Positions 9,356-63,659 of a DNA stretch of 64,000 nt are shown here, piece after piece. This DNA is from Squalus acanthias (taxonomy: Eukaryota). Within the stretch, counting starts at the first letter, position 1. Every line of letters begins with the position of its first letter. The notes under the pieces were generated by a model, which worked only from the letters and a program-made list of their open reading frames with translations, was not told where the DNA came from and searched no databases. The stretch is taken from positions 82,214,001 through 82,278,000 of the forward strand of contig CM059432.1 of assembly GCA_030390025.1 (NCBI GenBank), read 5' to 3'. A program made the translations under genes and the position numbers.

Positions 9356-9815
9356 ATGAATACACTGAATAACCAATGCCTTTGTAATTTTAAACAATCA
9401 ATTCTTTACCATCACTATCATTTTATACATACATGCTTGAGGGATTCCCGTTTTGTAAATGTCTATATTGCAATTCATTGTCAGAAGATCCTGGTATAGT
9501 ATCAATACAAGGGGTCCTTCAAACAAAAAAGAACCACTGGTCTAGATCAGCTCCTTCTTTGCTTTTCTTGCTCCTCCTTCCCTTATACTCTTTTCCTTTA
9601 CTCTGTCCCACTCTCTAGTCTCTGATAATTATACCTGATGTAAGTTTATACCAAATATCTATCCACAACCATGACTGTTGCTTTATATCATTGTCTTGGT
9701 TCCTTCAACACGTGTCTGATCATCCCTGTTCTTCATGTTACATTGGGGCTACCCAACCTCTATCATGCTTTGAAATCAGTCCATTTCACAATGTAGAAAA
9801 GAACAGTTTTAGTTT

Positions 9816-10338
9816 CAGACTGGAATAGCCCTGACCCCCACTGCAGACTGGGATAGTCCTGACCCCCACTGCAGACTGGGATAGCCCTGACCCCCACTGC
9901 AGACTGGGATAGCCCTGAACCCCACTGCAGACTGGGATAGCCCTGACCCCCACTGCAGACTGGGATAGTCCTGACCCCCACTGCAGACTGGGGTAGTCCT
10001 GACCCCCACTGCAGACTGGGATAGTCCTGACCCCCACTGCAGACTGGGATAGCCCTGACCCCCACTGCAGACTGGGATAGTCCTGACCCCCACTGCAGAC
10101 TGGGATAGTCCTGACCCCCACTGCAGACTGGGATAGCCCTGACCCCCACTGCAGACTGGAATAGCCCTGACCCCCACTGCAGACTGGGATAGTCCTGACC
10201 CCCACTGCAGACTGGGATAGTCCTGACCCCCACTGCAGACTGGGATAGCCCTGACCCCCACTGCAGACTGGGATAGTCCTGACCCCCACTGCAGACTGGG
10301 ATAGCCCTGACCCCCACTGCAGACTGGGATAGTCCTGA
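9816..10338. repeat. 28-bp minisatellite, about 18-19 copies
   Basis: Unit CTGCAGACTGGGATAG(T/C)CCTGACCCCCA repeated head-to-tail. Confidence 0.97.
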
Positions 10339-15234: not shown

Positions 15235-15309
15235 TTATTTTAGCAGAGATAAAGGAATGAGAAACCAAGGGAAACTGAAGAACAAGAACAGCCATCTGCA
15301 TCCCTTCAG
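15235..15309 (+). CDS. SULF1: SULF1 exon (YFSRDKGMRNQGKLKNKNSHLHPFR)
   Basis: TAG acceptor, GTAGGT donor; 75 nt, phase 2 to 2; SHLHPF motif. Confidence 0.92.
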
Positions 15310-15907
15310 GTAGGTGACAGTCTGTTGCAGGGCCAGGACTTTGTGGTGATTATAGTTTTACGAGAGATATTCGCATCAGAGGATAGCACCTCTTCTCAAT
15401 GGAGCATGAAAGATCTTGGCTTGGAACTGGTTCCAACCTTTTAAAAATGAGTTAAATCACATTGATTTATCATTGTTCCCTCCTGCAGTTTCTATTTTTT
15501 TTTTGAACAGTATCATGACTGGAGAATGGAACCACTTTTTTGTACCCAGTGTCAGCAACAAGCAATGCTAAGTCTGTAAGTGCATTGGGCAGACACAGAT
15601 TAAACTTCTCCTCTCCTGCCCCTACCCAAAACACAAAGGAGCACCACCCCCTGTATCAGTGTCTCGTCTCCTTTCCAAACATCGGCCATTTTTGTAAGTT
15701 TTTCTGAATGAGTTGCTAGGTTTTGCAAAGTTATGAAAGGTTTTGTGCTAGACTCAGGGCCGCTAGGGGCATTATTCAGTCTGCTCAAGTTCATTCGAAA
15801 TCGGGCTCTTAAAACCATAGAGAAACCACATAACCCGGGATTGGATTTGAAAGCAGGTACCAGAGGTGAAAACTCACCGTCCCACCAGGTTCCCTTTCAG
15901 CTTCAAT

Positions 15908-16850: not shown

Positions 16851-17032
16851 TAAGTTTCAGAAACACTATTGTGCATATTGTTCAAGACACCATATACTGA
16901 TGAGGTGTGAAATGAAGCCACCCATTGTTAGAGCAGCTTAGTGTTATATATGCTACTTGTACACTTCCATACATGCGGATCAGATTATCAAATAACCAGT
17001 AGGACTATAACTCCATTACTTGATCTTTTCAG

Positions 17033-22889: not shown

Positions 22890-25117
22890 AACATAGAAAT
22901 ATAGAAGATAGGAGCAGGAGTAGGCCATTCAGTCCCTCGAGCCTGCTCCGCCATTCAATGCGATCATGGCTGATCATCCAAATTCAGTACCCTGTCCCTG
23001 CTTTCTCCCCATATCCCTTGATCCGTTTAGCCTTAAGAAATATATCTAACTCCTTCTTGAATATATTTAATAAATTGGACTCAACTGTCTTCTGTGGTAG
23101 CGAATTCCACAGGTTCACCACTCTCTGGGTGAAAAATTCCTCCTCATCTCAGTCCTAAATGGCTTACCCCTTATCCTTAGACTGTGACCCCTGGTTCTGG
23201 ACTCCCCCGCCATCGGGAACATCCTTCCTGCATCTAGTCTGTCTAGTCCTGTTAGAATTTTATAAGTTTCAATGAGATCCCCTCTCATTCTTCTAAACTC
23301 TAGCGAAGACAAGCCCAATCGACCCAATCTCTCTTCATACGTCATTCCTGCCATCCCAGGTATCAGTCTGGTGAAACTTCGCTGCACTCCCTCCATGGCA
23401 AGAACATCCTTCCTCAGATAAGGCGACCAAAACTGCACACAATATTCAAGGTGTGGTCTCACCAAAGCCCTGTACAACTGCAGCAAGACCTCCTTGCTCC
23501 TGTACTCGAATCCTCTCACTATGAAGGCCAACATACCATTTGCCTTCTTAACCGCCTGCTGCACCTGCATGCTTACCTTCAGCGACTGGTGCACAAGGAC
23601 ACCCAGGTCTTGTTGCACTTCCCCTTTTCCCAATCTATTGCCGTTCAGATAATAATCTGCCTTCCTGTTTTTGTCACCAAAGTGGATAACCTCACATTTA
23701 TCCACATTATACTGCATCTGCCATGCATCTGCCCAATCACCCAACCTGTCCAAATCATACTGGAGTTTCTCTGCATCCTCCTCACAGCACACACGCCCAC
23801 CCAGCTTTGTGTCATCTGCAAACTTGGAGATATTACATCTAGTTCCCTCGTCTAGATCATTAATATATATTGTGAATAACTGGGGTCCTAGCACCGATCC
23901 CTGCGGTACCCCACTAGTCACTGCCTGCCACTCGGAAAAAGACCCGTTTATTCCAACTCTTTGCTTCCTGTCTGCCAACCAGTTTTCTATCCAAGTCAGT
24001 ACCTTATCCCCAATCCCATGTGCTTTAACTTTGCATGCTAATCTCTTATGCGGGACCTTATCGAAAGCCTTCTGAAAGTCCAAATATACCACATCCACTG
24101 GTTCTCCCTTATCTATTCTACCAGTTACATCCTCAAAAAATTCCAGTAGATTAGTCAAGCATGATTTACCTTTTGTAAATCCATGTTGACTTTGTCCGAT
24201 CCTGTCACTGTTTTCCAAGTGCTCAGCTGTTACATCTTTTATAATGGACTCGAGCATTTTCCCCACTACCGATGTCAGGCTTACCGGTCTATAATTCCCC
24301 GTTTTCTCTCTACCACCTTTTTTAAATAGTGGGGTTACATTAGCCACCCTGCAATCCATGGGAACTGTTCCAGAGTCCATAGAATTTTGGAAGATGACCA
24401 GCAATGCATCTACTATTTCTAGGGCCACTTCCTTAAGTACCCTAGGATGTAGATTATCAGGCCCTGGGGATTTATCGGCCTTCAATCCTGTCAATTTCCC
24501 GAACACCATTTCCCTACAAATACTGATTTCATTCAGTTCCTCCCTCTCATTAGACCCTATGTTCCCTGACATCTCTGGGAGGTTATTTGTGTCCTCCTTT
24601 GTGAAGATAGAACCAAAGTATGTATTTAATTGGTCTGCCATTTCTTTGTTCCCCATTATGAATTCCCCTGATTCTGACTGCAAGGGACCTACGCTTGACT
24701 TCACCAATCTTTTTCTCTTCACATATCTATAGAAGCTTTTACAGTCAGTTTTTATGTTCCCTGAAAGCTTACTTTCATACTCTATTTTCCCCCTCTTAAT
24801 TAATCCCTTTGTCCTCCTTTGCTGAATCCTAAACTGCTCCCAATCCTCAGGTTTGCTGCTTTTTCTGGCCAATTTATATGTCCTCTCCTTGGATCTTATG
24901 CTATCCCTAATTTCCCTTGTTAGCCACGGTTGAGACACCTTTTTTGTTTTATTTTTATGGCAAACAGGGATGAACAAATTCTGTAGTTCATCCATGCGAT
25001 CTTTAAATGTTTGCCATTGCCTATCCACCGTCAACCCTTTAAGTAACGTTCCCCAATCCACCCTAGCCAACTTGCGCCTCATACCATCGTAGTTTCCTTT
25101 ATTTAAATTCAGGACCC
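22890..25117 (-). mobile_element. 5'-truncated CR1 LINE with a 655-aa uninterrupted ORF2 segment (RT domain)
   Basis: ORF 23115-25082: [46 protein letters not shown]; ttctat-type tail. Confidence 0.96.
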
Positions 25118-25848
25118 TTCATTTTGCCTTGATTGCTTACCTGATGATGGCCTCAGTCTCACCTGAGACCTTCAGTAAAAGAATTGATGCAGTCCTCGGG
25201 GTTCTGTGGCCCTTTTATTCTTGTCTCCCGCTTATTCTGAGGCTGCAACGGTAATCCCACTGCAGAACTGCCTGGACTGCCCTGGAGACTCACTGGTGGA
25301 ACTCCTGCTTGCTGTAGGAGCCCACCATGAATACATAATGACCCCTTACCCAGGAGATTGGGCCACGGTCGGCCCATGGAAAGTTGTCCTGCCATGGCCT
25401 GTCGGGGCAGGAAAAAGAAAATCCAGCCCCTGGAATAAAAGTCTCCCCTTTCTAGCAGTTGATGTTTAAATGGCCTTTTTTCATAGTTTATTGTTTTATG
25501 CTGTTACAAGTGGAAGTTGCCCAGACCTATTTCACATCAGCTGTTAGAGAGAACAAACTTTCATTTCATCACTCTGGCTGGTTATGAAGTTAGCTTCACA
25601 GATGCTAGGTATTCTTGAAGCACTGTAAAGTGTCCTTTGCCTGCTGCTGCAGTCTATGCTCTGTCTTACTTGTACTCGGAATGTTATCGCCAAAGGCTTT
25701 ATGAAATGAGCATCCCCTCATCTAAACTCAAAAGTCAGGTTCTTCATTCTGGCAAAGTGTTCATCACAATATTGTTTTAAAGTGCATCATCCATAGGTTA
25801 CCCTGTGAAAAGGGAAGGCTGATGTCTGTTTTTATTTTGTGATTTCAG

Positions 25849-25972
25849 TTGACTAATACGGTACACATGGTTGAACGGGAAATTCTTAACCAGTTACACA
25901 TACAGTTAATGGAGCTGAGAAGCTGCCAAGGACACAAGCAGTGCACTCCACGGGCTAAGGGTGTGCAAACAG
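25849..25972 (+). CDS. SULF1: SULF1 exon ([41 protein letters not shown])
   Basis: CAG/GTAAT flanks; 124 nt, phase 0 to 1. Confidence 0.96.
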
Positions 25973-26826
25973 GTAATCAAGGATACAGTGATTGTCCGGA
26001 GCTCTCTTCACACGGAGTCTTCGCTTAGCTGTGAGAAAGAAATTGTAAAGAAAAATGAATTTCTGCTATTGTTGTCCACATTTGTCAGCAAAGAATTTGA
26101 TTTGTGTCATTTTCCTGGAATGGCATTCCTTGTATCAGTGAAACATAATTTTTCCCCATTGCTCCTTAATTTTTCAGGTGAAATCTTCATGGAAAACTGC
26201 AGATTAGGATCACATTTGTAAAGTGTTTAAAATGGATCAAAAATCTGCAACACTCTTTTAAGTTAAAAGCCCCACAACATTTACATTTTCACCAAACAGT
26301 TCCTATGTTGAGAGTCCAGTGTAGAACATGTTATATGGGACAGGGCAGGACACCAAGTTTATTCAGTTTATTCAGCCTGCTGGTTCACATAATTCTTTTC
26401 CTGACAGTCATAAAAATGTACATTTTCTGCTTTCATTTTCGAAAGCAATTCAATTGCTGATGTGCACCTCTGTTCTTTAATACTAATCATTGTTGAAAGT
26501 TGAACCAGTATAATTATGGACCCTTTGATTAAAGAGCCAGCATCCATTTGTCCCTTTTTAACATTTCCAGTAAAAAATCAAAACAAGCATGAGTTTTAAT
26601 TTTATGTTTACTTTTTTGACCAGGAGTAACTCACTTAAGCACTGAAAGCCTTTATTTTTAACTCTTAGGCTGCCAGCAAGTCCAGAGACAGTTGCGTAGT
26701 GTTCAGCTAATGCACTGTAACATGGGAACAACTGGCAGAGCCTTGAAATTACGCTGATATTAATGTACAAACGCTTAACGTGTTGATATGAAATTCTTTC
26801 GCCTGCTATTTTAACAAAGTAGTAAC

Positions 26827-26981
26827 CAATGTTCCTTCTTACTTTTTTTGTCGGCGCGTGGGCCCTTTAACTGGCTGCATAGCCCATTTAAATGTTTGCG
26901 CATGCGTGGTTTTTCTCCGGTGCGCGGCCTGCGCGAGACCTCCAGAGCGCTGCGCGACTGCACAGCTTAACGAGAACATTG
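26827..26981. mobile_element. About 155-bp hAT-type MITE (CAATGTTC TIR family)
   Basis: TIR CAATGTTC / GAACATTG; perfect 8-bp TSD GTAGTAAC; CpG-rich. Confidence 0.82.
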
Positions 26982-27139
26982 GTAGTAACCCATTTTTTAA
27001 AAAGTGGTTCATTTTAATTATCAATGTTGTGAAGAATGTATCATATTCTAAATGGAACAATGCCTCTGTTAAAATAGCAGCCAAAGGAGGTTGGTTTGCA
27101 CATTAATATCGCACAATGCAATTTCAAGGGCTAAGTTTT

Positions 27140-27570
27140 TGTCAGCTTGACTCAGTTGATGGCACGCTCGCTCAGGTCAGATGGTTGTGGGTTTGAGCCC
27201 TGCTCCAGGGGGTTGAGCACATAATGTAGGCTAGGTCTCCGGTGCAGTACTGAGGGAGTGCTGCATTGTTGGAAATGCCAACCTTTGCATGAGACGTTAA
27301 ACTGAGATCCCACCTGCTGTCTTGGTGGATCAGGTGAGCATTAGTATTCTGATGTCATTATTCGAAGAAGACTAGAGAATTCTAATGGTGACCTTCCCAA
27401 CATTCCTGATTATTCATCTCATGGCTGCTCATGAGATACTTTTAGCACAGAATGGCTGCTGTAGTTTGTCGACATGACAACAATCCCTGCACTTCAGGAA
27501 AAAAGTAACTCATTATGTAAATTGCTTTGAGAAGTTTTGACGTGAAAGGCGCTATATAAATGCAATTATT
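27140..27570 (+). mobile_element. DeuSINE (older copy)
   Basis: tRNA-like head, gtgcagtactgagggagtgctgca core, aggcgctatataaatgca tail. Confidence 0.7.
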
Positions 27571-28692
27571 ATTTATTTATATTATTGTATTACTACAGTA
27601 AAGCTACTCAAATGTCCAGAATAGCTTTATCTGTAATATTAACCTCAACTACAAAAATAAAATATAAAATACAATTTTTAGTAAAAATCTAAACTTTTAA
27701 ATATTTCCATTCCATCCCTGTGTTTCTTTTTTTCAACCTCTTGAAGTCTTTCATCCCCTATTTTCTCTTTACATAATTTTATTGCTTTTAATTTAATTTT
27801 ACTTATTTCTAACTAGCCTAACTCTAATCCTCTCTAATTTGAAACCTTGTATTTACCTTCTTTTTGTGGCCCCACTGTCCATTTTGGAGGGGGGGAGCAA
27901 GTTCCAAAATATTGTTCTTTCTTTGTTTTAAAACTGATTTTGAAGGTTTTTTTTCCAGCCAATCAAAGATAAACATGACTATGTCTTTGGTACATCAGCA
28001 CATATCAAACAGAAGGTCTGACTGAACGAGTGCACTCAGCACCAGCCCTGGAGCCCAACAAGCTCATCTTTTACAACCAATCCGGACACAGATTACTGAT
28101 TTTAGATCAGATGTGTGATAAGTCAAACTTGAGGGTTTTCTGAAGCGCAAACTTGACAAAGTGATCTTTCAAATGTAATATTTTGGTATCCATGTTGTAA
28201 AGCATCTACCACAAATAGGTCACTCTGCCCCAAAAACATGAATTATCCTCTCGAGAAAAAAATAATTGTTATTAACCCACATATAGGCTGTATAACCAAC
28301 TTAAACTGATTTCTTCTTATATATATTTTCCTATCTGTAACTTGTGCATAATTAGGCAGAACAGAGGAAATAAATTTAAATGAAGAAGGTTGACTTATTA
28401 GAACTACTTTTGTGTGTGCGGAGGTGCATACAGTAGCTTTAAGCATGTAGTAATTATTTGTGTAGATTAATTACCCTGCCTGTGGATAATCATTCTTTTC
28501 TGGGAATTGAGTACAAAAATGATACATTCACAGAGCCACACAGCAGAAATTCAGTTATAAAATTAAATACGGAAGTCTAAGAAAATGTCAATAGTGAAAT
28601 ACAAAGTTAATGTAATAGTATAAACAGTTACTGTTAGCATCAAGCTTGTTCTGAAGCTAATATTGAATATAAAATCAGGTACTCTGTGTCAT

Positions 28693-28878
28693 GGGGATAA
28701 TTTTGACTTTGTGCGATAGTGTAAAATGGGTGATAGCGAACCGGTAGCCCCTTTTACACCTCTCCCAATTTTTATTTCTATTGAAGTCAATGGGAATAAA
28801 AATCGAGAGAGATGTAATACGGGCTGCCAATTCGCTATCGCTCATTTTACACTTTAACACAAAGTCAAAATCTACCCC
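28693..28878. mobile_element. Palindromic Harbinger-like MITE (about 185 bp)
   Basis: Long inverted arms GGGGATAATTTTGACTTTGTG..AGTGTAAAATG / CATTTTACACT..CACAAAGTCAAAATCTACCCC; relatives at 50562 and 54351. Confidence 0.8.
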
Positions 28879-29159
28879 ACAGTCTTTTATATGTTTCCAC
28901 TGCCTAATAAAATGTGTAAAGAAGCTGACCGTCCTAACTGAACTAGTTTGCAATGATACGAGACTACTGTTTACTCTCTCTATTAGTCTAGGTTTCCCAG
29001 CCATGTTCTCTTGATTAATTCTTGTGTCAAAGGTTACTTTTTCTCTCTATTTTAACCATATTACATTTTTCTTCAGGTAATGCATGGACAGATACATTGT
29101 GAATAATTTTACCGTTCTAAAAACATTAACAAAAATTACTCTTGTATTTTCCTAATCAG

Positions 29160-29193
29160 GAAATAAAGATGGAGGAAGCTTTGATCAGCACAG
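29160..29193 (+). CDS. SULF1: SULF1 34-nt exon (GNKDGGSFDQHR), frame-switching if skipped
   Basis: CAG/GTATCC flanks; phase 1 to 2; matches GNKDGGSYDLHR of SULF1. Confidence 0.93.
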
Positions 29194-29604
29194 GTATCCA
29201 TACTTTTTATTCTCTTAAACAACTTTCTTTCCAACCAATTGCATGAGCTGGCACATTGAAGCTTTTTTTTTTAGTTTTGTTGTGCATTGCACTCAGCATT
29301 CTTTATTGCATGACAACTCATCCTTTAACAAATAACAGCTAAATCTTATTTCAGATCATCTGTTTTACTCAACTCTGCTCTTTGGGTACCACAGGAGTCC
29401 TAATAATTTGCTTTTGTTGTGATCCCAGTTCAGTTGCTCCTCGAAGATGAAAGTGATTTCAAACTGAAGAGAAATTGTTTAATTCCTATCATTCTCCCCA
29501 TCACTCTCTCACACATGTAAATATACACATGTATACTGACACACTTACACATATCAAACACACACTAACACAGACACTTGATAATCGAAAAACTGAATAC
29601 CATT

Positions 29605-30340: not shown

Positions 30341-31781
30341 AATATGTTTTGCGAAATTCTACAACGAAGCTATAAACACTGTTGATATTTTTTTAAATCA
30401 GTCTAATAAAAATTCCACAAATATGAATTTCTAATTCCAGTTAAATCGCCTGTAAAATGTCATCTGTATCCATTAACTGGGGCTTTAAATTCTACCAAAT
30501 CACAATCTTGTGGCCCCCATCCTGAACCAAGGATGGTAATATCCAGACTAGTTACAATGTTTTAACATTTTCTCCTATGTGGACTGTGGTTCAGTAGGCA
30601 ATTTGGAGTAATTCTACTTCAAAAGTATTTTCTATCATTAATGTCGGATGTTTTCAATAATTTTGCTCAAACTTATCAACATCCATGAAAGATTTGGAGC
30701 CTGAATTAAACTTTCAGTACATTCGTAAGTAATTTTTTTAACCTTTCGTCTATTTATAATTGGTAAGCTTCATATTGCCTTTTCCATCTTGCAGTTATCT
30801 TCTAAAATCTAATATGAATTACTAAACTATCTTAACCATGAAAAACACAAACTTCCATTGGTGCCACAGAATGTGACAGTATGAGTTTGTATCTGTAATG
30901 CCTGCACAATAAGCTTGACAGGACTGTTCATGAAAGTGCTGAGTGGAGGCGAGAAGCTTCCCCACAGGCAGCACAAGCATATTGGCACAAGTCACGCTGG
31001 ACCTTTCCCCAATAGCTTCTGGGAACCGGAGTCAGAAAGGAATTGGTAAAGGCCTGGGAGAAGGACAGCTATCTGCCCTCTTATTGTAAACTGGGATGTC
31101 GCACAGAGAGGTCTTAAAGTGGGAGAAAAACAAATGTATTTAAAAGACTAGGGCCGGAATTTTTACATTGAAGAGAGTGCGGGTTCGCGAGCAGGTCAGC
31201 AGTTAAAAGCATCGAAATTGACTGTGTCAGGAACCCACCTGCATCCCGCCGGCTTCCCCATTTAACTCGGGTGCGTTTCCCAGTGCTCGAGAGAGGCGGG
31301 CGACCTCATTGAAGTAGTTAACAGCTCGTTGACAGATCCTCAAGAGGCTTTTTAACCTAAGGTTTTAGCTTTTACTGCTTGTGCATGGGATTCACAGACT
31401 CCCTGAAGCTCGCCTGTGAAGGCAAGGTGAGAGCTCAGTGGCCATTGTGTAAGTTCATTAAGTGACAGCTGGAAAAAGCACAAATACTCACACCTTACAC
31501 CTGCTTCCTTGCCTGAGGGAAAGGCTCTTGGTCACACCATTTTGTGCAAAAATTTTGTTTTCAGGAGTTTGCAAGTGATTTCTGCAACCTTGGAAGTCAC
31601 TCACTACATTGGAGGATTGTGCCTCTGATCTCCACTTTACCTGGCATCTGTCAGATCAGCATGGGGACCTTGGACCTCAGATTGTGACCAAGATGAGCCC
31701 CAGCAGCAGCAGCAGCCTTCCCCTCATCGACCTGATGCTCCACAGGACAAATGGGATCAGCACAGGGGTGCACCTCACCAG

Positions 31782-32822
31782 AGGCGATACCCCCAACACA
31801 GGGTATACAGGCAGAGGATGAGCTTCCTGGACATGACTGAACAGCAGTGCTTCAGGAAGCTCAGGCTATCGTGCCAGGTCATGGCAGACATTTGTAGCTT
31901 GCTGGAACAAGACCTGCTGCCCAGAGGACCTGGTGGACACTCCTTACCAGTGGCTGTCAAAGTCACCACCGCCCTCAACTTCTTCGCCTCAGGCTCCTTC
32001 CAGGAATCTGCAGCAGACATTTGCAGGTTCTCACAGTCAGCCGCCCACAAATGCATCACCCAGGTGACCGATGCCATATTTCACTTATGTGCACTTTGCC
32101 ACTGATGAAGCCAGTGTGACTGAGCGGGCACTTGGCTTTGCAGCTCTGGCTGGTTTCCTACGGGTACAGGGCATCATCGACTGCACACATGTGGCTATGA
32201 AGACACCCCATCATCACCCAGGAGTGTTTGTGAACCAGAAGGGCTTCAACTCCCTCAATGTGCAGCTCATCTGCAACCACAAAAAGATCCTCATGCATGT
32301 GTGTGCCAGATTTCCAGGGAGCTGTTATGACTCTTTTGTCCTGCGCCAGTCCACCATCCCTCAGCTCTTCGCACCTTCGAACAGACTTACCGGCTAGCTA
32401 CTTGGAGACAAGGGCTATTCACTGAAGACATGGCTCATGACACCCTGGAGGAGGCCAAGCAATGAGGCTGAGGAGCGCTATAATCAAAGCTACACGATGA
32501 CCAGATGTGTAATAGAGCAAGCAATTGGCATGCTGAAGATGCGCTTCAGATGCCTTGACAAATCTGGAGGAGCCCTTCAGTACGCACTAGCCAGGGTCTC
32601 CAGAATCATCGTCATACGCTGCATGCTGCACAACATAGCGCAGCAGCGAGGATTGGAGCGGCAGGAGGCGCAGAGTGCACAGCCTCTTTGGAGGAGGAGG
32701 AGGAGCAGGTGGAACATGAGGAGGAGGAGGAGGAGGAGGAACCTGAGGTGGACATGGCACCATTAGCAGCCCACATTGCTGTCTGGGAGGCCCGGGATGG
32801 CCTCATAATGGCACGATTTAGT
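31782..32822 (+). pseudogene. Disrupted Harbinger (HARBI1-like) DDE transposase
   Basis: [69 protein letters not shown]; frameshift at about 32080, in-frame TAG at 32395-32397. Confidence 0.92.
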
Positions 32823-37522: not shown

Positions 37523-39559
37523 ATCCCTCACTCTACCATTACCATCAAGCCAGGAGAACAACCCTGGTTCAATGAGGAGTGCAGAAGAGCATGCCAGGAG
37601 CAGCACCAGGCGTACCTAAAAATGAGGTGGCAACCTGGGGAAGCTGCAACACAGGACTACATGCATGCTAAACAGCGGAAGCAGCATGCTGTAGACAGAG
37701 CTAAGTGATCCTGCAATCAACGGATCAGATGAAAGCTGTGCAGTTCTGCCACATCCAGTCGTGAATGGTGGTGGACCATTAAACAACTAACGGGAGGAGG
37801 AGGCTCCATGAATATCCCCATCCTCAATGATGGCAGAGCCCAGCACGCGAGTGCAAAAGACAAGGCTGAAGTGTTTGCAACCATTTTCAGCCAGAAGTGC
37901 CAAGTGGATGATCCATATCGACTTCTTCCTGACATCCCTACCATCGCAGATGCCAGTCTTCAGCCAATTCGACTCACACCACGTGATATCAAGAAACGGC
38001 TGAGCACACTGGATACAGCAAAGGCTGTGGGCCCTGACAACATCCTGGCTGTCGTGCTGAAGACTTATGCTCCAGAACTCGCTGCGCCTCTAGCCAAGCT
38101 ATTCCAGTACAGCTATAACACTGACATCTATCCGACAATGTGGAAAACTGCCCAGGTATATCCTGTCCACAAAAAGCAGAACAAATCCAATCTGGCCAAT
38201 TACCGCCCCATCAGTCTACTCTCAATCATGAGCAAAGTGATGGAAGGTGTCATCGACAGTGCTATCAAGCGGTACTTACTCACCAATAACCTGCTCACTG
38301 ATGCCCAGTTAGGGTTCCGCCAGGACCACTCGGCTCCAGACCTCATTACAGCCTTGGTCCAAACATGGACAAAAGAGCTGAATTCCAGAGGTGAGGGGAG
38401 AGTGACTGCCCTTGACATCAAGGCAGCATTTGACCGAGTGTGGCATCAAGGAGCCCTAGTAAAACTGAAGTCAATGGGAATCAGGGGGAAAACTCTCCAC
38501 TGGCTGGAGTCATACCTAACACAAAGGAAGATGGTTGTGGTTGTTAGAGGTCAATCATCTCAGCCCCAGGACATTACTGGAGGAGTTCCACAAGGCAGTG
38601 TCCTAGGCCCAACCATCTTCAGCAGTTTCAATGATGATGGGGATGTTCGCTGATGATTGCACAGTGTTCAGTTCCATTCGCAACTCCCCAGATAATGAAG
38701 CAGTCCATGCCCGCATGCAGCAAGACCTGGACGACATTCAGGCTTGGGCTGATAAGTGGCAAGTAAAAATCGCGCCACACAAGTGCCGAGCAATGACTAT
38801 CTCCAACAAGAGAGAGTCTAACCACCGCCCCTTGACATTCAACGGCATTACCATCGCCGAATCCCCCACCATCAACATCCTGGGGGTCACCATTGACCTG
38901 AAACATAAATGGACCAGCCACATAAATACTGTGACAACAAGAGCAGGTCAGAGGCTGGGTATTCTGCGTCGAGTGTCTCACCTCCTGACTCCCCAAAGCC
39001 TTTCTACCATCTACAAGGCACAAGGAAGGAGTGTGATGGAACACTCTCCACTTGCCTGGATGAGTGCAGCTCCAACAACACTTAAGAAGCTCGACACCAT
39101 CCAGGACAAAGCAGCCTGCTTGATTGGCACGCCATCCACCACCTTAAACATTCACTCCCTCCACCACCGGCACACCGTGGCTGCAGTGTGTACCATCTAC
39201 AAGATGGCTGCAGCAACTCGCCAAGGCTTCTCCGGCAGCACCTCCCAAACCCGCGACCTCTTCCACCTAGAAGGACAAGGGCAGCAGGCACGTGGGAACA
39301 ACATCACCTGCAAGTTCCCCTCCAAGTTATCCACCATTCTGACTTGGAAATATATCGCCGTTCCTTCATCGTCGCTGGGTCAAAATCCTGGAACTCCCTC
39401 CCTAACAGCACTATGGGAGTACCTTCACCACACGGACTGCAGCGATTCAAGAAGGCGGCTCACCACCACCGTCTCAAGGGCAGTTAGGGATGGGCAATAA
39501 ATGCTGGCCTTGCCAGCGACACTCACTTCCCAGGAACAAATAAAAAAAATTCAACCTTT

Positions 39560-41327: not shown

Positions 41328-41381
41328 GCTACAGCAGCATCGAAAGTGGCCAAAGTTGAGGAGGCCCAGCTTCAAGTCCTT
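41328..41381 (+). CDS. SULF1: SULF1 54-nt cassette exon (LQQHRKWPKLRRPSFKSL), homologous to the SULF2 penultimate exon
   Basis: Polypyrimidine tract plus CAG acceptor, GTGAGT donor; symmetric phase 2-2; resembles SULF2 QFQRRKWPEMKRPSSKSL. Confidence 0.85.
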
Positions 41382-48303: not shown

Positions 48304-48954
48304 TAGAATATAGGGATGCAAATTACAGAATTCTATAGTTATGTAAAAAGCAGAATCCCTAGTTATGTAGACATGGAGGAAAGGAAGATACTTTCCAGAC
48401 TGTCTAACATAAAGGCACTTGAGACAGTTTATTTACCAGTGAACCAATCAAACCCACCCAGACGTCAGAGATTGTTCAAAGACACCGAGATGAATCAAAA
48501 TGAAATCGCTTAGGCCTGAATTCATGACTGGGCAGTAGTACCAACAATAGAGCTGATGGAAAAATGGCATTTATAATGAAAATTACACACAAGCTATGGT
48601 TGACATTAGATGAGCCTCTTGATGGATGAGATAATGCCCAGCAATATCCAAACCCATGGTCAGGAGGGAGTCCAGACATGAAGCCAAACAGGGGATGCAT
48701 GTAATTACAATGTACAGGTCCACACAAGGCTTAATGATGTGATGAAGATGTCAGCCATGGAGAAGACGGCATTCAACGTCCAAGCCAGGAGAGCAACAAG
48801 GGAGAATTCTGACAGATGAAGGATGTTATTAGTTGACACAGGTCTGTCATTGGCTCCCTGATGAGCCTGCAGTTTCTAACATGCTGCTTCTCTTAAGTTA
48901 AATCTGTACACTAAATCACTGTTTTCAGGTGATTGATTTGAGGTCCATAGATCA

Positions 48955-50465
48955 TTGGAAATAGCAGAGGTCCTGACCATCATTTTCCAATCCTCTCTGG
49001 CTTCAGGTGTGGTGCCGGAGGACTGGAGGACTGCTAATGTGGTACCCTTGTTTAAAAAGGGAGAAAAGGATCGACCGAGTAATTACAGGCCAGTTAGCCT
49101 AACCTCGGTGGTCGGAAAATTATTGGAAAGAATTCTGAAGGACAGGATAAATCTTCATTTAGAAAGACACGGATTAATCAAGGATAGTCAGCACGGATTT
49201 GTTAAGGGAAGGTCGTGTCTGACAAACTTGATTGAATTTTTTGAGGAGGTAACAAGGAGGGTAGATGAGGGTAATGCATTTGATGTAGTGTATATGGACT
49301 TTAGCAAGGCTTTTGATAAGGTTCCACATGGCAGACTTGTCACAAAGTTAAAAGCCCATGGGATCCAGGGCAAAGTGGCAAGTTGGCTTGGAGGCAGGAA
49401 GCAGAGGGTAATGGTTGATGGGTGTTTTTGTGACTGGAAGGCTGTTTCCAGTGCGGTTCCGCAGGGCTCAGTATTAGGTCCCTTGCTTTTTGTGGTATAT
49501 ATCAATGATTTAGACTCGAATATAGGGGGTATGATTAAGAAGTTTGCAGATGATACTAAAATCGGCTGTGTGGTTGATACTGAAGAAGGGAGCTGTAGAC
49601 TGCAGGAAGATATCAATAAATTGGTCAGGTGGGCAGAACAGTGGCAAATCGAATTCAATCCGGAGAAGTGTGAGGTAATGCATTTGGGGAGGGCTAACAA
49701 GGAAAGGGAATACACATTAAATGGTAGGACACTGAGTAGTGTAGAGGAACAAAGGGACCTTGGAGTGCATGTCCACAGATCCCTGAAGGTAGCAAGCCAG
49801 GTAGATAAGGTGGTTAAGAAGGCATACGGAATGCTTGCCTTTACTAGCCGTGGCATAGAATACAAGAGCAAGGGGATTATGCTTCAACTGTATAAAACAC
49901 GAGTTAGGCCTCAGCTAGAGTACTGCGTGCAGTTCTGGTCACCACATTACAGGAAAGATGTGATTGCACTAGAGAGGGTACAGAGGAGATTTACAAGGAT
50001 GTTGCTGGGGGTAAAGAATCTTAGCTATGAGGAAAGACTGGATAGGCTGGGTTTGTTTTCCTTGGAACAGAGGAGGCTGAGGGGAGACCTTATTGAGGTG
50101 TATAAAATTATGAGGGGCCTAGATAAAGTGGATAGAAAGGACCTATTTCCCTTAGCAGAGGGGTCAAAAACCAGGAGGCACAGATTTAAAGTAATTGGTG
50201 GAAGGTTTAGAGGGGATTTGAGGGGAAATTTCTTCACCCAGAGGGTTGTGGGGGTCTGGAACTCACTGCCTGAAAGGGTGGTAGAGGCAGAAACCCTAAC
50301 CACATTTAAAAAGTACTTGGATGTGCACTTGGGATGCTGTAACCTGCAGGGCTACGGACCAAGAGCTGGGAAGTGGGATTAGGCTGGATAGCTCTTTGTT
50401 GGCCGGCATGGACACGATGGGCCGAAATGGCCTCCTTCTGTGCTGTAACTTTCTATGATTCTATG
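48955..50465 (+). mobile_element. 5'-truncated CR1 LINE with an open RT-to-C-terminus frame (475 aa)
   Basis: ORF 48955-50382 has all RT motifs (KFADDTK) and a native stop; ttctatgattctatg tail. Confidence 0.96.
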
Positions 50466-51343: not shown

Positions 51344-51819
51344 CGATTCCGTATTATCTGAAACTAATAAAAATGTCAACACTTTTGCTTTCCAAATGCT
51401 ATTTGATTGCAATGTAATGAAATATTAAGGGCAGTGCAGCTAGAAATATCAGATAAGGTGAAAATTACCTTTTAATTTATATTGTGTTTACTGTATGCAA
51501 AATCAAAATGGCTACACATTAGTTACTTTCTTTAAGAAATCTCTTTTTGACAGTGAGTTTTGTGCCTGTGGTCTATCATTATTTCTCTTTCTTCCCCTGT
51601 TGCCTACGTTAAAATTCTGATGTGTGTTTTAAATCTGTTCCTGCTGTGCAGCTTTGCTAAAGTCTTTGTGTGGTGGGATGAGCTATCTCTAATTTTGCTT
51701 TAAACAACCAGTTGATATTGGAGCAGGTGCATGTTTGCATGCAAACGCAGTGCTTCAGCAATTATGGGCGGCGTCGTATGTGAAAATAATCTACTTCAAA
51801 TCTTTGCTTCTGCCAGCAG

Positions 51820-51850
51820 AGGACAGCTATGGGATGGATGGGAAGGTTAA
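51820..51850 (+). CDS. SULF1: SULF1 terminal coding exon, canonical frame (GQLWDGWEG*)
   Basis: CAGCAG acceptor at 51814-51819; TAA at 51848-51850; canonical SULF1 C-terminus. Confidence 0.95.
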
Positions 51851-52730
51851 TCCACTCAAACTGCCAAACTTCACAGAAAATATCAACTGGGAAGGACTTG
51901 AAAATTTGTACAGTGTGGATGAAAGCTTGTTTGAACACAGGCATAATTATAGCCTTAGCCTTGGAGACTGGACTAATTACTGGAAGGATGTAGATAGAAT
52001 GTTTGCACTGCTGAAGACTTTTTCTGAACACATTAAAACTTCTGAGCCCATTGCGCTAAATAAGGGCAGGACTCTTGATTTGTTGACCATTGACACCACA
52101 GCACTGGACATGGCATCTACTCCATTGCCTATTTTGGGAAATGTGTTCTCTACTGAGCCAGAGGACGAATCTAGTGGCATGACTGCATGGGAGGCGAAAG
52201 AAGCACAACCTGCTGTACTTATAGACTCCAGGGGTCCAACTGCAAGCGCAGCCATTACAAGTGGTGACAGCCCAAAGGAGGAAGTGATAAATTACAATCA
52301 TATACCTGATAAGCATTTTTCAAATTCTGAATGGTGGAGACATAATCGGACACAAGAGTTGATAAAAGAATGGGTGGAGCTGGAAAATGATCAAGGTTTC
52401 AGTGGAAATGGCCTGATGGAGATTGAGACCAGAAACAACTTCTTCCTGCAGCAAAGTGGCCTGATTCCATCACCCAGCAACCAGAATGAAGTAGAGGAGA
52501 AAGAGGACATATTTGAAGATCAAACATATCTTCCTGCTGGTTCTGTTGGTCAATTTTATAATAAAGCTTTCACAGTTCCTCTAGAAACCGGGGTCAGCAA
52601 CAATGAGAAATCAACAAGTGTTCAGCTTCAGGAAGAGCCCCAGAGCAGTGGAGAGGAAATCCACGAGAACTTCAGTACAGAAGGCAGTGCCTTGCCCCCT
52701 CCTTCCTTTCATCAACTCAAAACCCGCTAA
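51820..52730 (+). CDS. SULF1: SULF1 terminal exon, alternative frame: 303-aa C-terminal extension (EDSYGMDGKV...HQLKTR*)
   Basis: 909-nt stop-free frame starting at the acceptor; in frame with the exon ending at 25972 when 29160-29193 is skipped; non-repetitive, followed by an AT-rich UTR. Confidence 0.7.
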
Positions 52731-54350
52731 TTATTTATTTGGACAACTATTTTAATCTTTAGTAATAACAGCTTTATTTTTAACAGCTTACATTGTGAGG
52801 TCAAAGCAAAGCACATTCCATTTCCATTGGAGGTTCATTTCATAACAGACTAGCCATGGTGGAAATATCACATACAGTTTTATTTTATTAGCATTGTGTG
52901 GAATGAGGGAACAAGAAGCTTATATTCCTTTTATAATTGTAATGTTTTACAACTCTCTATATAAATATATATTTAAATGTTCAGTGTTATGTAACTATGG
53001 ATAGACATGACCCAAAGTGCTACGAGAAATTCTCCCAAGCTTTCCATTGGCTGTTCAGTATGCAGAACTTTAGGTGCTTCAGCCTGTCCTACAGAGGGTC
53101 TCAAGATCTGTGACCTTTCCATTCCAAAAAGCCCTCATCATACACTCTTCACATTAATTCACCATTATAGAAGTTATGAGTACAGCAGTGTTTTCTTCTT
53201 ACAAAATATTTTGCACTTTCAGAATTCTTCACAATATATTTGCAGAATTTGGCCGCCAAGTATGGATGTATTAACAGTGCAGAGCATTGGCTCAGTAAGT
53301 TTTTCCAGCTGATCATTTTAGCTGTAATGTGTAAAGGAAATCTCATTCCGTGTTCTTCATGCTGTAACGTACTGTCACTTATCAGTTGTTTTTCTTCTAA
53401 AATTTTTTAGGGTTGTCTTTTTTTGCTTTTGAATTTTTACCTAGGCCTGTTTTGAAATTCTTCTTTAATGAAGGGACAAGATGAAGTCAACGTGCTGGAT
53501 TTTGTTTCACTTCATTACTTTTTCCTGTTACTTGGCACACATGCTTGCATAATGGAAAATGATATTAAAGGGGTATTGTCTTTGTGAAAATGTTTTGCAA
53601 ATTTGCTTTGTTGGGAGAGGGGGAAGAATCATCTGTCATTTTACCCTGACAACATTGAGTGCAACTGTCATAATGATGTACTTCTAATGAGATTAACGTC
53701 ACTGTGTGAATATGCATTAATAAATGGTTTGCAAGCACTTTTTCATGAATACGGTGCCCCTTTAAAATTAAAAAGTAGGCAAAACTACTTACAATATACT
53801 TGATGAGTAACTGTTTTGATAATTCTGTTTATAGTTTAAAAACCTTGTTTAACATCATCCCTAGATTCATTTGCATGAAGGTTTGTATAATGTGTGTAGG
53901 TTTTACAGTGGTCACAGATGTTTTCATTTTTTTATTATATGATGATAACATCATACATTTCCAAGCCAATGTAATCGATGTGCATAGGTTAGAGACATCA
54001 GAATAGTGCAATTCATGCTATTTTCTTCAAAGGGTAAAATTTGTATCAGTGTGTTATTTTTGTCTGTAATATACACTGGCCATACTATTTACTGTTGCTT
54101 GTTTCTGGATAGACTTGCAGTGATTAAACCACAATGCTTAATCCTTCTGTGAGAATGTAATTGTCATTAGTGATACAGAGTACTATCAACAAAAGGTACC
54201 AGAGTCAAAATTGAATTAAAATCTGAAGTTCACAACAGTGTATGTGTGATTATAGGTACCCTGCAATGACTTAAAGATTTGGTTACTATGTGTTAAAAGA
54301 TCCCCATATTCATTATTTCTATCAAAAGTCGCAAAGCATTCTAAACAATA

Positions 54351-55544: not shown

Positions 55545-56700
55545 TATGTATTTCCAGCATTTTCTGTTTTTATCTCACACAATTTATTTGTTTTTCATGC
55601 ATTTTGTTTTGTTTCAAACCGCAATGAATCACATATAAGGGTAGAAAATGGACCTTGTGTCCACTTTACAGGCGTAAAGCGGGTGCAACAAGGCCTAATC
55701 TTGGGGACTAACGTCCTGTTCCCCAAGAACACCTGAAAAACGTCTGACATGAAATTGAGTCAGGCCATTTTTCAGGCACTCCTGGTGGCCACCTAAAACA
55801 GACTTTAGGTGAGGTACATATGGAAATGAGGGGCCTAATGCCTGTTTCAGGTCCCATCACAGAAATTGAGCAACAATGAGCAGGCCAGGCATTGGGCTTG
55901 CCCCACGCAAGATTCTTCTACAGCCGCCAGTTAAAATTAGGTTTTTTGTAATGCAAAATGTAACAGAACTTCTCTGTGGAGCCAGGAGGAGCAGGAGTGC
56001 TCCGCTGACTCCATAGTCGTTGGAGATTGCTCCAGAAAAATACTGCCGGCCACTGCCGCTCACTCACATAATAGCCAAGAAATTGTTGTCGGCGTATTAT
56101 TCATGGGTAAACTACATTGCTAAAGGTTTTGGGGCGAATGTGCAACTGCTGGTTTACCCACAAGATTGCTGTTTTCAGTTTGTGGCTAAAACTGGCGAAA
56201 TTTTCTCTCATGCAGTTGGCCAGTCAATAAGAAGGGGCAGTGCTAAAACTCTAACTCAACCATGAACTGCAATTATGAGCTGAATAATGCATCTGTGGCC
56301 TTCTTGAGACAACGGTGGCTAGCAAACTGGCTGATATTACAGATGTCCCTCACAATAACCTCAAGGGAACATAGTGAAAGGCATAGTCACCCTGGCAGTT
56401 GGAGGTTGTCTGTAGGTCTTCTTCTAATCCAGTGCCTGAGCCACCAATATCCAAACACACCAGTTGCCTTGATGCCCAGCTCATCAAGGCTCCTCCTCCT
56501 ATTGCCTCTGAAATCCAAAGTAATCGAATATAATTCCACCATTTTGGTGTTTCAACACAGGTGTGTTATTAACCTAGACTGGCTGTTCTGCACGTGCACC
56601 CACCCTTAGATGCAGCAGCACAGGTACCAACATATCCCATAAAATATTTGATCCCCTCCATCTATTGTTATCCCTATAATCTTTAATTCCATTCTATAGC

Positions 56701-59700
56701 CACTAAACTGCTGACCACCCAACTTCCTTTTCTGGCTCCCATGTTAGCCGATATTGTTAACAGTTCTCTCTCCTCAAGTACTGTCCCCCTCTCCTTCAAA
56801 TCTGCCGTCATCACCCCTCCTCAAAACAACAAACCTCGATCCCCTCCGTCCTTGCAAACTACGCCCCCCATTTCCCACCTCCCTTTCCTCTCCAAAGTTC
56901 TTGAACGTGTTGTCACCTCCCCAATCCGTGCCCATCTTTCCCAAAACTCTATATTTGAATCCCTCCAATCAGGTTTCCACCCTGACACAGTACCGAAATG
57001 GCTCTTATCAAAGTCACAAATTACATCCTATATGACCATGACAAAGTTAAACTATCCCTCCTTGACTTCTCGACCTGTCTGCAGCCAATGGCACGGTTGA
57101 TCACACCATCCTCCATAATGCCACAACATTTCTGCAGCTACTGATCTGCTCAACTTCACCCTCACCACCACCTTTGATGCCCTAGTCCCCATTAAAACCA
57201 TTACTCTCTCTCACCCTGGCCGTTCCCCCTGGTATGGCCCTCATTTCTGCTCCCTTAAGTCCAAGGGACGCAGACTTGAACGGATATGGCGGACAACTGG
57301 TTTAGCCATTCACTGCCAGATCTGGCTGAACCACATAAAGCATTATCGGGTCCTGCTCTCGTCTGCCAAAACTGCTCACTATTCCAGAATCATTCTGGAA
57401 TGCAAAGATAACCCCCGGCTTCTTTTCTCTACTGAAAACCATCTTTTAAACCCCTCTCCCCTGTCTCCTTTACCCTTACCTCCAACAACAAGTGCGAGGA
57501 GCTCATGAACTTCTTTTTCACTGATTGAGACCATCTGATCAGCTGCCTCTGCCACTTCCCTTCCTTCCCCTAGCCCACCGGGCCAAACTTCCTCTAAGGT
57601 TGCCCCCTGCCCTAGCCCTGAACTCGTATCTTTCTCCAGTTTCTCTCCGATCTCCCCTCATGCCCTCTCCGAGCTCATCTTGTCCATGAGGCCCACTTCC
57701 TGCTCCCTCAACTCTATACCCACTAAACTGCTGACCACCCAACTTCCTTTTCTGGCTCCCATGTTAGCTGATATTGTTAACAGTTCTCACTCCTCAGGTA
57801 CTCTTCCCCTCTCCTTCAAATATGCCGTCATCACCCCGCTCCTCAAAAAAACTCTTGACCCCTCCATCCTTGTAAACTACCACCCCATGTCTGACCTCTC
57901 TTTCTTCTCCAAAGTCCTTGAATGTGTTGTCGCCTCCCAAATCCGTGCTCATCTTTCCCAGAACTCCATGTTTGAATCCCTCCAATGAGGTTTCCGTCAC
58001 TGCCACAGTACCGAAACGGCTCTTATCAAAGTCACAAATGACATCCTTTGTGACCGTGACAAAGGTACACTATCCCTCCTTGTCCTTCTCGACCTGTCTG
58101 CAGCCTTTGACACGGTTGACCACACCATCCTCCTCCAATGCCTCTCCACCGTCGTCCAGCTGGGTGGGACTGCACTGGCCTGGTTCCATTCTTATCTATC
58201 TAATCGTAGCCAGAGAATCCATGGCTTCTTTTCCCACTCTTGCATTGTTACCTCTGGTGTCCCCCAAGGATCTATCCTTGCCCCCCCCCCCACCCCCTCC
58301 TATTTCTCATCTACATGCTGCCCCTTGGCAACATCATCTGAAAACACAGCATCAGTTTCCACATGTACGTTGACGACACCCAGCTCTACCTCACCATCAC
58401 TTTTCTCGACCCCTCCACGGTCTCTAAATTGTCAGACTGCTTGTCCAACATCCAGTACTGGATGAGCAGAAATTTCCTCCAAATAATATTGGGAAGACTG
58501 AAGTCATTGTCTTCGGTCCCCGCCACAAACTCCGTTCCCCAGCAACTATCTGAGGCTGAACCAGACTGTTCGCAACCTTGCTGTCATATTTGACCCTGCA
58601 ATGAGTTTCCAACCACATATCCACACCATCACTTAGAACGCCTATTTCCACCTTCGTAACATCGCCTGACTCCGCCCCTGCCTCAGCTCATCTGCTGCTG
58701 AAACCCTCATCCATGCCTTTGTTACCTCTAAACTTGACTATTCCAATGCACTCCTGGCCGGCCTCCTACATTCTATCCTCCATAAACTTGAGGTGATCCA
58801 AAACTCGGCTGCCTGTGCCCTAACCCGCACCAAGCCCCGTTCACCCATCACCCCTGTGCTCGCTGACCTACATTGACTCCTGGTTAAGCAACGGCTCAAT
58901 TTTAAAATTCTCATCCTTGTTTTCAAATCCCTCCATGGCCTCGCCCCACCCTATTTCTGTAATCTCCCACAGCCCCACACCCTCCGAGATATCTGCGTTC
59001 CTCTAATTCTGGCCTCTTGAGCACCCCTGATTTTAATCGCTCAACCATTGGTGGCCGTGCCTTCAGCTTCCAAGGCCCTAAGCTCTGGAATTCCCTCCCT
59101 AAACCTCTCCTCCTCTCTACCACTCTTTCCTCCTTTAAGACACTCCTTAAAACCTTCCTCTTTGACCAAGTTTTTGGTCATCTGCCCTAACATCTCCTTA
59201 TGTGGCTCGTGTCAAAGTTTGTTTTAAAAAAGAAAGAAAGACTTGCATTTATATAGCGCCTTTCACGACCACCGGACATCCCAAAGCGCTTTACAGCCAA
59301 TGAAGTACTTTTTGAAGTGTAGTCGCTGTTGTAATGTAGGAAACGCTGCAGCCAATTTGCGCACAGCAAGCAGCAATGTGATAATGACCAGATAATCTAT
59401 TTTTATGATGTTGATTGAGGGATAAATATTGGCCAGGACACTGGGGAGAACTCCCCTGCTCTTCTTCGAAATAGTGACATGGGATCGTTTACGTCCACCT
59501 GAGAGTGCAGATAGGACCTCAGTTTAACGTCTCATCTGAAAGATAGCACCTCCAACAGTGCAGCACTTCCCTGGAGGGTCAGCCTAGATTTGTTGTGCTC
59601 AAGTCTCTTGGAGTGGGTCTTGAACCCACAACCTTCATAGACTCAGAGGTGAATGTGCTACCAACTGAGCCATGGCTCACACTAAGAATGCTCCTGTGAA

Positions 59701-62525: not shown

Positions 62526-62846
62526 TTAGCATGAAGGCCGATTTTACAAAATCTCAATGAGAGTGTGGAGTAGGGTTAACAACCCTCCAGGAGTGTCCTG
62601 GAGTCTACAGGAATTGAAGATTCATCTCCAGGACACTCCTGTAGACTCCAGGACACTCCTGGAAGCATCCCAGGAGAAAAATCATATGGGTATTAAAAAA
62701 AATTGTGTTTTTTTCATTTTCTTTGAACACTTTCATGTATTAGTTGTAAAAATATTGGAGATGGGGAAGAAAGGTTGTTTCACGAACAGTCAAGATGAAT
62801 CTAATTGGTTAACAAACAGTCTGGTTTCCAATTGGTGTAGGGGGCG

Positions 62847-63210
62847 GTGAGCCTGGAGGATGGGCCAATGGCGGGAGTGTGGGGGGCAGTGAGCCTGGAG
62901 GATGGACCAATGGCGGGAGTGTGGGGAGCAGTGAGCCTGGAGGATGGGCCAATGGCGGGAGTGTGGGGGGCAGTGAGCCTGGAGGATGGGCCAATGGCGG
63001 GAGTGTGGGGGGCAGTGAGCCTGGAGGATGGGCCAATGGCGGGAGTGTGGGGGGCGGTGAGCCTGGAGGATGGACCAATGGCGGGAGTGTGGGGGGCAGT
63101 GAGCCTGGAGGATGGGCCAATGGCGGGAGTGTGGGGGGCGGTGAGCCTGGAGGATGGGCCAATGGCGGGAGTGTGGGGGGCAGTGAGCCTGGAGGATGGA
63201 CCAATGGCGG
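62847..63210. repeat. 42-bp G-rich minisatellite (about 8.5 copies) inside a hAT-like element (62571 to about 63270)
   Basis: Unit GTGAGCCTGGAGGATGG(G/A)CCAATGGCGGGAGTGTGGGGGGC(A/G). Confidence 0.95.
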
Positions 63211-63659
63211 GGTTGTTCGATCCGGGAGGTCATGTGATGAAATCTCCAGGAATACACCCAATCAGAGTTTCCCAGTACGTGCGACTTGTCATATTGGGGA
63301 ATTGCAGAAAATCGTGAGATCTGGCGTCTCCTGGCAGGCAAGACTCCCCGTCAGTAACACACATTCATAAAATTGGTCCTCCGGATAAATACAGTTAGAT
63401 ACACCAAACCGAATGCCTATCAGTTGATATCATGGCATGGGCACAGAAAGAGGAAAAGTTGTGGTTAAAAGTCTTTGAAAGTGCCAGCTTTGATTACTTA
63501 GAACACTGGGTCCTCTTTTTTTGTTGTGTGCAAGAACCGTGACAAGAACTAGAATGAGCTGAATGGCCTTCCTCATCCCTTGTGAACCAGGTGGATCGCT
63601 ACAAAGAAAGACTTGTACTTGTATAGCACCTTATCACATCTCTCAGAAGTGTCTCTAAG

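Follow-up and report, generated by a model that had tools for sequence, protein, structure and literature searches.

A splicing-selected second reading frame in the last exon of SULF1 and its acidic tail, a candidate for glycosaminoglycan attachment

The locus and its two reading frames

The window, by which is meant the whole stretch of 64,000 nucleotides analysed (Squalus acanthias, assembly GCA_030390025.1, contig CM059432.1, positions 82,214,001 to 82,278,000 of the forward strand), contains the 3′ half of SULF1 from a cartilaginous fish. To our knowledge no extracellular enzymes other than SULF1 and SULF2 edit the 6-O-sulfation of heparan sulfate. That the gene is the SULF1 orthologue is indicated by exon identities of 85–100% to Cetorhinus Sulf-1 versus 44–87% to the paralog, and its GQLWDGWEG end agrees with the human SULF1 row in the tables of PMC7392665. 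The features at issue at its 3′ end are:

25849..25972, + strand: exon A, the final constitutively spliced coding exon of SULF1; length 124 nt, phase-1 end, GT
29160..29193, + strand: exon B, frame-switch cassette whose inclusion gives the short canonical end; 34 nt
41328..41381, + strand: exon C, frame-neutral cassette with the basic stretch LQQHRKWPKLRRPSFKS; 54 nt
51817..51850, + strand: acceptors in tandem (51817/51820) and the beginning of the last exon (D), read in two frames, GQLWDGWEG-stop versus EDSYGMDGKV
51820..52730, + strand: long reading frame, 303-aa acidic tail

Exon A is identical in length to the human and mouse exon (PMC7392665 Table S1), and the 34-nt exon has counterparts in human and mouse SULF1 (PMC7392665) and in the SULF2 paralog, where there is also a counterpart of the 54-nt exon. 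AG/GT ends are present at the boundaries of exons A, B and C and at the acceptors 51820 and 51817, and both acceptor forms are represented among RefSeq models. By exon phase, joining A directly to D gives ...GVQT-EDSYGMDGKV in frame with the long ORF, which is what an earlier note on this DNA had claimed for the phase-1 exon ending at 25972 when joined to 51820; the long form requires that exon C be skipped too. A-B-D and A-B-C-D joining both give the GQLWDGWEG end, and A-C-D joining leads to a stop within exon C. The canonical stop is at 51848–51850 and the overlapping frame is open over 51822–52727, i.e. for 302 codons (303 counting the junction Glu) with its stop extending to 52730, so that the two overlapping frames described in the earlier note are where it had placed them. 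So is the AT-rich DNA that it had put downstream of the long frame, GC falling from ~0.40–0.46 to 0.30 past 52800. Over the long-ORF region the remaining five frames have 5–29 stops.

Two trivial origins of the open frame were considered and rejected. None of 20,000 Markov resamples attained 302 open codons (the maximum was 211), and a repeat-derived ORF is not indicated, the tail being single-copy in its own genome apart from one paralog. The last exon has a third frame, open over 57 codons (51820–51993), in which one Heterodontus model (P0040, isoform X7) terminates; as a further conserved protein frame it was discarded because it has stops in both paralogs, and in the paralog comparison, where it is shorter in SULF2, it had no mark of protein selection.

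Exon B itself contains an ATG, at 29169, in a favourable setting with A at −3 and G at +4. Since this ATG is in the long-tail frame of the exon-included mRNA (MEEALISTEDSYG...), the short mRNA would also contain the tail as an overlapping ORF. Of 35 further ORFs 7 begin at the equivalent ATG, which may simply reflect DGG codons.

Elsewhere, in introns and downstream, are ORF fragments that we take to be LINE reverse-transcriptase/endonuclease-like (23118–25118 on the − strand, 37733–39497, 48937–50379 and 56687–58462), and 31629–32763 resembles what is presumably a Harbinger-type transposase fragment. Five A[AT]TAAA hexamers clustered at 53564–54215 probably mark the poly(A) region, there is another TTTGCACT at 53210, and the tandem-repeat arrays at 62793–63367 and 9766–10459 have open frames on both strands.

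Evidence that the long form is made

The long-tailed isoform is not new. It is present in RefSeq models, as the earlier note had guessed, and had already been catalogued in print: in Preussner et al. 2020 (PMC7392665) the mouse and human SULF1 rows have a 34-nt penultimate exon and a 272-aa tail from EDSYGMDGKV, both are entered as annotated and as RNA-seq positive, and they form an orthologous pair. One proteotypic tail peptide, from a single mouse brain lysate, is in the supplements of that study and Sulf1 RT-PCR primers are in its Methods. In the parts consulted Sulf1 is confined to rows of the tables and one pair of primers, with no discussion of conservation depth, SULF2 or glycosylation, and the supplements have 0 matches to SULF2. 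In literature searches that took in few subscription journals and not the splice-variant work of the Dhoot laboratory, no paper devoted to long SULF1 was found, and the supplements of PMC13247117 had 0 SULF matches. While the existence of the isoform is not news, the age of the switch, the helical module and the candidate attachment site considered below were not found in the literature searched.

Assembled Squalus reads from four runs, considered over 25700–29300, gave repeat-derived joints only plus one contig ending inside exon A, with none of the contigs extending as far as the 3′ ends of exons A and B. Conservation in SULF1 models, the mouse and human RNA-seq and the one mouse-brain peptide together bear out the splice switch and coding status that had been proposed for the tail, and we have very little doubt that the long form is a translated and selected isoform.

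Could the tail be just a destabilizing extension, akin to other 3′UTR-encoded frameshift ends, with skipping doing no more than lowering the amount of SULF1 protein? Every frameshift C-terminus tested in PMC7392665 was destabilizing, and the SULF1 tail is mostly disordered in models of it. However, the destabilizing class is enriched in Pro, Cys, Ser and Leu and the U2af26 end lacks sequence conservation (PMC7392665). SULF1 tails have 2.6–9.9% Pro, almost no Cys and conserved motifs. The Sulfs being secreted, the tail would moreover be luminal, away from the proteasome, and we consider that destabilization is very improbable as its function.

Conservation across vertebrates

RefSeq models with the tail come from sharks, rays, coelacanth, bony fish, amphibians, reptiles, birds and mammals, with the provisos that they are for the most part predicted (X) models and that a protein search is blind to species with a broken frame. 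A longer-protein search yielded, among 2,152 candidates, 17 clusters with the tail, all of them SULF1 models with an identical junction and with 34–88% identity (sharks and rays 74–88%; coelacanth, birds, mammals, axolotl and characiform fish 34–43%). When the search was with the first 69 residues 48 of 55 candidates matched, adding 36 tails to the set: 27 from birds, 4 from sturgeons, 2 each from turtles and lizards and 1 from koala. When 1.84 billion representatives were searched exhaustively 36 matched at E<=0.001, and the 35 new ones were classed by pattern as 26 SULF1-like, 7 SULF2-like and 2 neither. Pattern classification of 84 proteins gave 33 long, 17 A-B-D, 11 A-B-C-D, 15 other and 8 without the anchor, with long and short SULF1 forms being found within one species. 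The tails are 269–307 aa (for 5 of the 36 further tails the length was set at a fixed 275) and have a net charge of −14 to −37.

Jawless-fish or invertebrate names did not occur among the named matches, a weak negative as 9 of the 10 distant matches checked bore no name, and a metagenome scan for ortholog DNA gave 239 pattern matches, none confirmed. Upstream of the tail, relatives' SULF1 models differ by ~25 residues (1119–1120 versus 1144–1150 aa), the window positions concerned being 17019–17028 and 15233–15319; this length difference suggests a further optional exon near 15233–15319, in the hydrophilic domain.

The SULF2 paralog and nucleotide constraint

Of 8 candidates in a search of the dogfish genome two matched, the window itself and a SULF2 paralog locus (G000:C11). 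The latter ends in GQLWEGWEG-stop and has a phase-1 exon A, a 34-nt exon and a 54-nt exon; its second frame is open for 121 residues and is 46% identical to the SULF1 tail over the first 75. Sturgeon and bonefish SULF2 models use this second frame (4 matches among 321 candidates). SULF2-type tails, of 84–277 aa, align in frame with the shark tail, and their linker length changes are also in frame. From the same 34-nt/54-nt layout and second frame in SULF2, the frame switch is likely older than the SULF1/SULF2 duplication, for which no outgroup was found.

Ray-finned-fish SULF2 tails share a second hydrophobic motif, SAIYLTTLATPALLL (L005:7658-8020, in G000:C11), which is only faintly recognizable in shark and missing from three divergent tails. 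The basic 54-nt exon is kept in shark, ray and characiform SULF1 models, also in SULF2, and the few mammalian short models retrieved all lack it. Taken with the tail switch, the optional 54-nt exon means that the SULF1 3′ end could offer basic, neutral and acidic C-termini.

Early in the tail are two features shared by the paralogs:

51882..52037, + strand: block common to SULF1 and SULF2; predicted helix-loop-amphipathic helix; few synonymous changes between paralogs
52001..52010, + strand: TTTGCACTG core, part of 24 consecutive nt that do not differ between SULF1 and SULF2

Differences between SULF1 and SULF2 by codon position are 12/13/11 over codons 22–66 and 95/63/182 over 345 control codons. 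Synonymous differences number 5/23 in the block versus 97/203 in the control (Fisher p=0.025, four windows having been tried with p 0.016–0.094). The TTTGCACTG core overlaps what we take to be miR-19, miR-130/301 and miR-148/152 seed matches, labels for which a literature search gave no confirmation, and the shared block had 0 Rfam matches. Since the block is 3′UTR in the short mRNA and has few synonymous changes, it probably does double duty, as protein in one mRNA and as an overlapping 3′UTR element in the other.

Need it be protein at all? It may be envisaged that the block is chiefly a conserved 3′UTR or splicing element of the short mRNA, with the protein frame riding along and that of SULF2 being possibly incidental. 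The shortage of synonymous differences and the 24 identical nt would suit this, as would the change in mouse of KDVD to RAVY with FALL kept and the variable length (84 to 277 aa) of SULF2-type tails, and paralog similarity alone is insufficient as proof of protein selection in SULF2. However, the long frame has zero stops in both paralogs versus 2–3 and 8 in the other frames. The amino-acid changes in the block are conservative, with mean BLOSUM +0.33 to +1.0 where simulated random base changes average about −0.5; p was <0.05 for 9 of 10 comparisons, all against one shared reference, and in 37–63% of the simulations a stop arose. Also at odds with a purely nucleotide element are the in-frame length changes of the SULF2 linker, motifs that are in frame 200–290 codons downstream, the detected mouse peptide and the lack of an Rfam match. 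We judge it unlikely that such an element is the main explanation; most likely it adds to, rather than replaces, protein selection.

Anatomy of the tail

The acidity of the tail, its Ser-Gly sites and its four sequons (NFT, NYS, NRT and NFS) are as the earlier note had them: the shark tail has 50 D+E versus 22 K+R, and no Cys, with relatives' tails being almost without Cys. In a tail-only AlphaFold model (36 sequences) pLDDT is 67–92 over residues 11–80, helices are predicted at 23–30 and 47–73, and elsewhere pLDDT is mostly <55, with a weak helix near 171–188; past residue ~80 the tail is predicted to be disordered. A full-length model had a mean pLDDT of 31 and was set aside. The long helix is amphipathic, the highest hydrophobic moments of the tail being at 48–75. 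According to the tail-only model the opening ~65 residues would form two helices, making a small module at residues ~21–73 that is followed by a disordered linker. This predicted helical start, the terminal EGSA site and the SULF2 switch had been overlooked in the earlier note. Among 9 clade representatives there are 38 invariant columns, 23 of them in residues 1–70 and 15 beyond, the latter at N..P, S-G-x-G..E, F..Q..LP and E-G-S; one of the downstream motifs is:

52509..52535, + strand: IFEDQTYLP, conserved short motif, in 22/25 and 28/36 tails by pattern

The tail had 0 matches in Pfam and 0 among PDB sequences, and Foldseek with the tail model gave nothing at E<=0.001, its single match, at E 6.9, being attributable to chance.

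These features raise the issue of whether the job of the tail resides in the folded module and short motifs, serving in partner binding, oligomerization, secretory sorting or shielding of the active site, the acidic linker being a chain-free spacer. The concentration of 23 of the 38 invariant columns in residues 1–70, where pLDDT is 67–92 (residues 11–80) and the helices at 23–30 and 47–73 are predicted, is favourable to that possibility, as is the hydrophobic moment peak at 48–75, and SULF2 tails retain the module yet are without acidic Ser-Gly. Against this, 15 invariant columns lie within the disordered region, grouped around S-G-x-G and E-G-S, and there is no Pfam, PDB sequence or fold match to point to a partner. 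A module role and a chain role can coexist, and as a full account the module is a less probable one, though of the alternatives considered it is the one we take most seriously.

Candidate glycosaminoglycan sites

Ser-Gly near acidic residues is typical of glycosaminoglycan attachment sites. Known chondroitin sulfate sites are in acidic, disordered regions, the Ser being followed by Gly or Ala and preceded by acidic residues (PMC10424144). ENDQGFSGNG, EDESSG and TEGSA are of this kind, with low-confidence coil predicted there. Retention was assessed in 25 tails, one per genus with the genera selected by the analyst, and in the further 36 tails (27 birds), which had been found without use of the motif:

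52395..52412, + strand: GFSGNG, main candidate glycosaminoglycan site, Ser codon 52401; 25/25 tails
52677..52691, + strand: TEGSA, terminal candidate attachment site, Ser codon 52686; 24/25 and 34/36
52161..52178, + strand: EDESSG, second candidate attachment site; 16/25 and 28/36, lost in sampled mammals

Ser195-Gly is kept in all 25 tails and the remaining Ser-Gly sites in 7–16. Of the Ser-Gly sites to which the earlier note drew attention ENDQGFSG thus stands (25/25), while EDESSG (16), SSGEE (10) and TSGDS (9) are not consistently kept; with the four sequons kept in 9–16 of 25 tails, most of the named sites were dropped as a conserved feature, GFSGNG alone among five Ser-Gly being invariant. 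In the further set [FV]SG is present in 34/36, with LSG in two turtles, and the second Gly of FSGxG is variable (22/25 and 30/36). Ser290 is kept in 24/25, and EGS[AG] is present in 34/36. In the PMC7392665 rows the main candidate is ETDFSGDG in human and EGDVVSGNG in mouse.

Human SULF2 bears a chondroitin/dermatan sulfate chain on DGGDFS583GTG, and on removal of that chain both activity and cell binding go up (bioRxiv 2021.01.04.425218). HSulf-1 from HEK293 cells had no chain in the same work, for which we assume the short isoform. The GFSGNG of the SULF1 tail resembles the DFSGTG of the SULF2 site, in both cases acidic-F-S-G-x-G in a flexible acidic stretch, the differences being that the SULF2 site is proven and is in the constitutive hydrophilic domain, whereas the SULF1 candidate is in an optional C-terminal tail. 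At the S583-equivalent position Ser-Gly is in 0/20 non-mammalian SULF1 rows and in 7/7 mammalian ones, there in a non-acidic setting; SULF2 rows have EDEGFSGTG in 3/4, with that sequence in sturgeon and EEEENMGESSGTG in shark. Reciprocally, SULF2-type tails are without acidic Ser-Gly (7/7 and 4/4).

Some observations counsel caution. Ser-Gly is insufficient, as SULF2 S508-G is unmodified (bioRxiv 2021.01.04.425218), and acidic EDTSG/EDASG is present in many SULF1 cores although HSulf-1 was chain-free. SULF1 had 0 matches in the text and supplements of the urine chondroitin sulfate glycoproteome (PMC10424144) and in the main texts of PMC9526814 and PMC13038410; SULF2 is likewise absent wherever searched in such papers, and their databases may lack the long isoform. 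With that said the tail looks, from its sequence, like a proteoglycan core, and a chain on the long form is somewhat better than an even bet.

A chain-bearing SULF1 by exon skipping?

The Sulfs are secreted enzymes; the N-terminus of the one considered here is outside the window. The last SULF1 exon has two conserved reading frames between which splicing would choose, and skipping of the 34-nt and 54-nt exons would swap a 21-residue canonical end for the 303-residue acidic tail. We envisage that the long form would be secreted and xylosylated at the Ser of GFSGNG, perhaps also at those of EGSA and ESSG, and so would carry a chondroitin/dermatan-type chain on its tail. Acidic tail or chain would then compete electrostatically with the basic hydrophilic domain, an effect measured for the SULF2 chain, with weaker binding of the enzyme to heparan sulfate and a damped SULF1 as the outcome. 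The SULF2 chain is constitutive, in the hydrophilic domain; that of SULF1 would be acquired only through splicing. It is the presence of acidic FSG in the optional tail of SULF1 and its absence from SULF2 tails, coupled with the known effects of the SULF2 chain, that suggests this, and we put the probability that skipping makes a glycosaminoglycan-bearing, damped SULF1 at roughly 0.5. That damping of activity or of surface retention, by chain or acidic tail, is the main role is itself evenly poised. A chain does not account for the conserved module or the IFE..YLP motif. A broader scheme is offered tentatively: a two-frame exon that predates the duplication may give the Sulfs a helical module, with the 34-nt exon an on/off switch making SULF1 a part-time proteoglycan where SULF2 is a constitutive one, and the same 200 nt being also a regulatory 3′UTR element.

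It has been proposed that the difference between SULF1 and SULF2 is due to a glycosaminoglycan chain on SULF2 and none on SULF1 (bioRxiv 2021.01.04.425218), a contrast repeated in PMC10721642. Long SULF1, conserved from shark to mammal, catalogued and apparently unstudied, has a near copy of the SULF2 attachment motif. If it does carry a chain, the published contrast would be limited to the short form, and the ratio of isoforms could underlie context-dependent effects of SULF1.

Comparison with known systems

In the class of splicing-accessible coding 3′UTRs (PMC7392665) frameshifting skipping of a late exon takes translation beyond the canonical stop to a new stop in the last exon. By layout the SULF1 tail belongs to it: the 34 nt of exon B are not divisible by 3, A-D joining is in frame, and there are 303 new residues, 293 of them past the canonical stop, for a class in which at least 20 and at least 10 respectively are specified. 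In shark, exon C intervenes, so that exon B is penultimate only if C is skipped. The trend of the class, which was studied in mammals, is to proline-rich, destabilizing ends (PMC7392665), and from this the SULF1 tail departs, with 6.0% Pro in shark and 2.6–9.9% in relatives; it is acidic, conserved across jawed vertebrates, part of a secreted enzyme and has a predicted folded module.

The closest relative is the mouse and human skipped isoform, which has in common with shark the 124-nt exon, the skipped 34-nt exon, the EDSYGMDGKV junction and motifs. The shark tail is longer (303 versus 272 aa), more acidic and has extra Ser-Gly sites, and shark SULF1, unlike that of mouse and human, retains the 54-nt exon in between so that two exons have to be skipped. 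Short SULF1 and SULF2 variants lacking exons 6–8 and 18 (PMC8999074) are likewise products of alternative splicing of Sulf genes, with effects on function. Those variants lose catalytic or hydrophilic-domain exons and are inactive, whereas long SULF1 keeps the enzyme whole and adds a tail to it.
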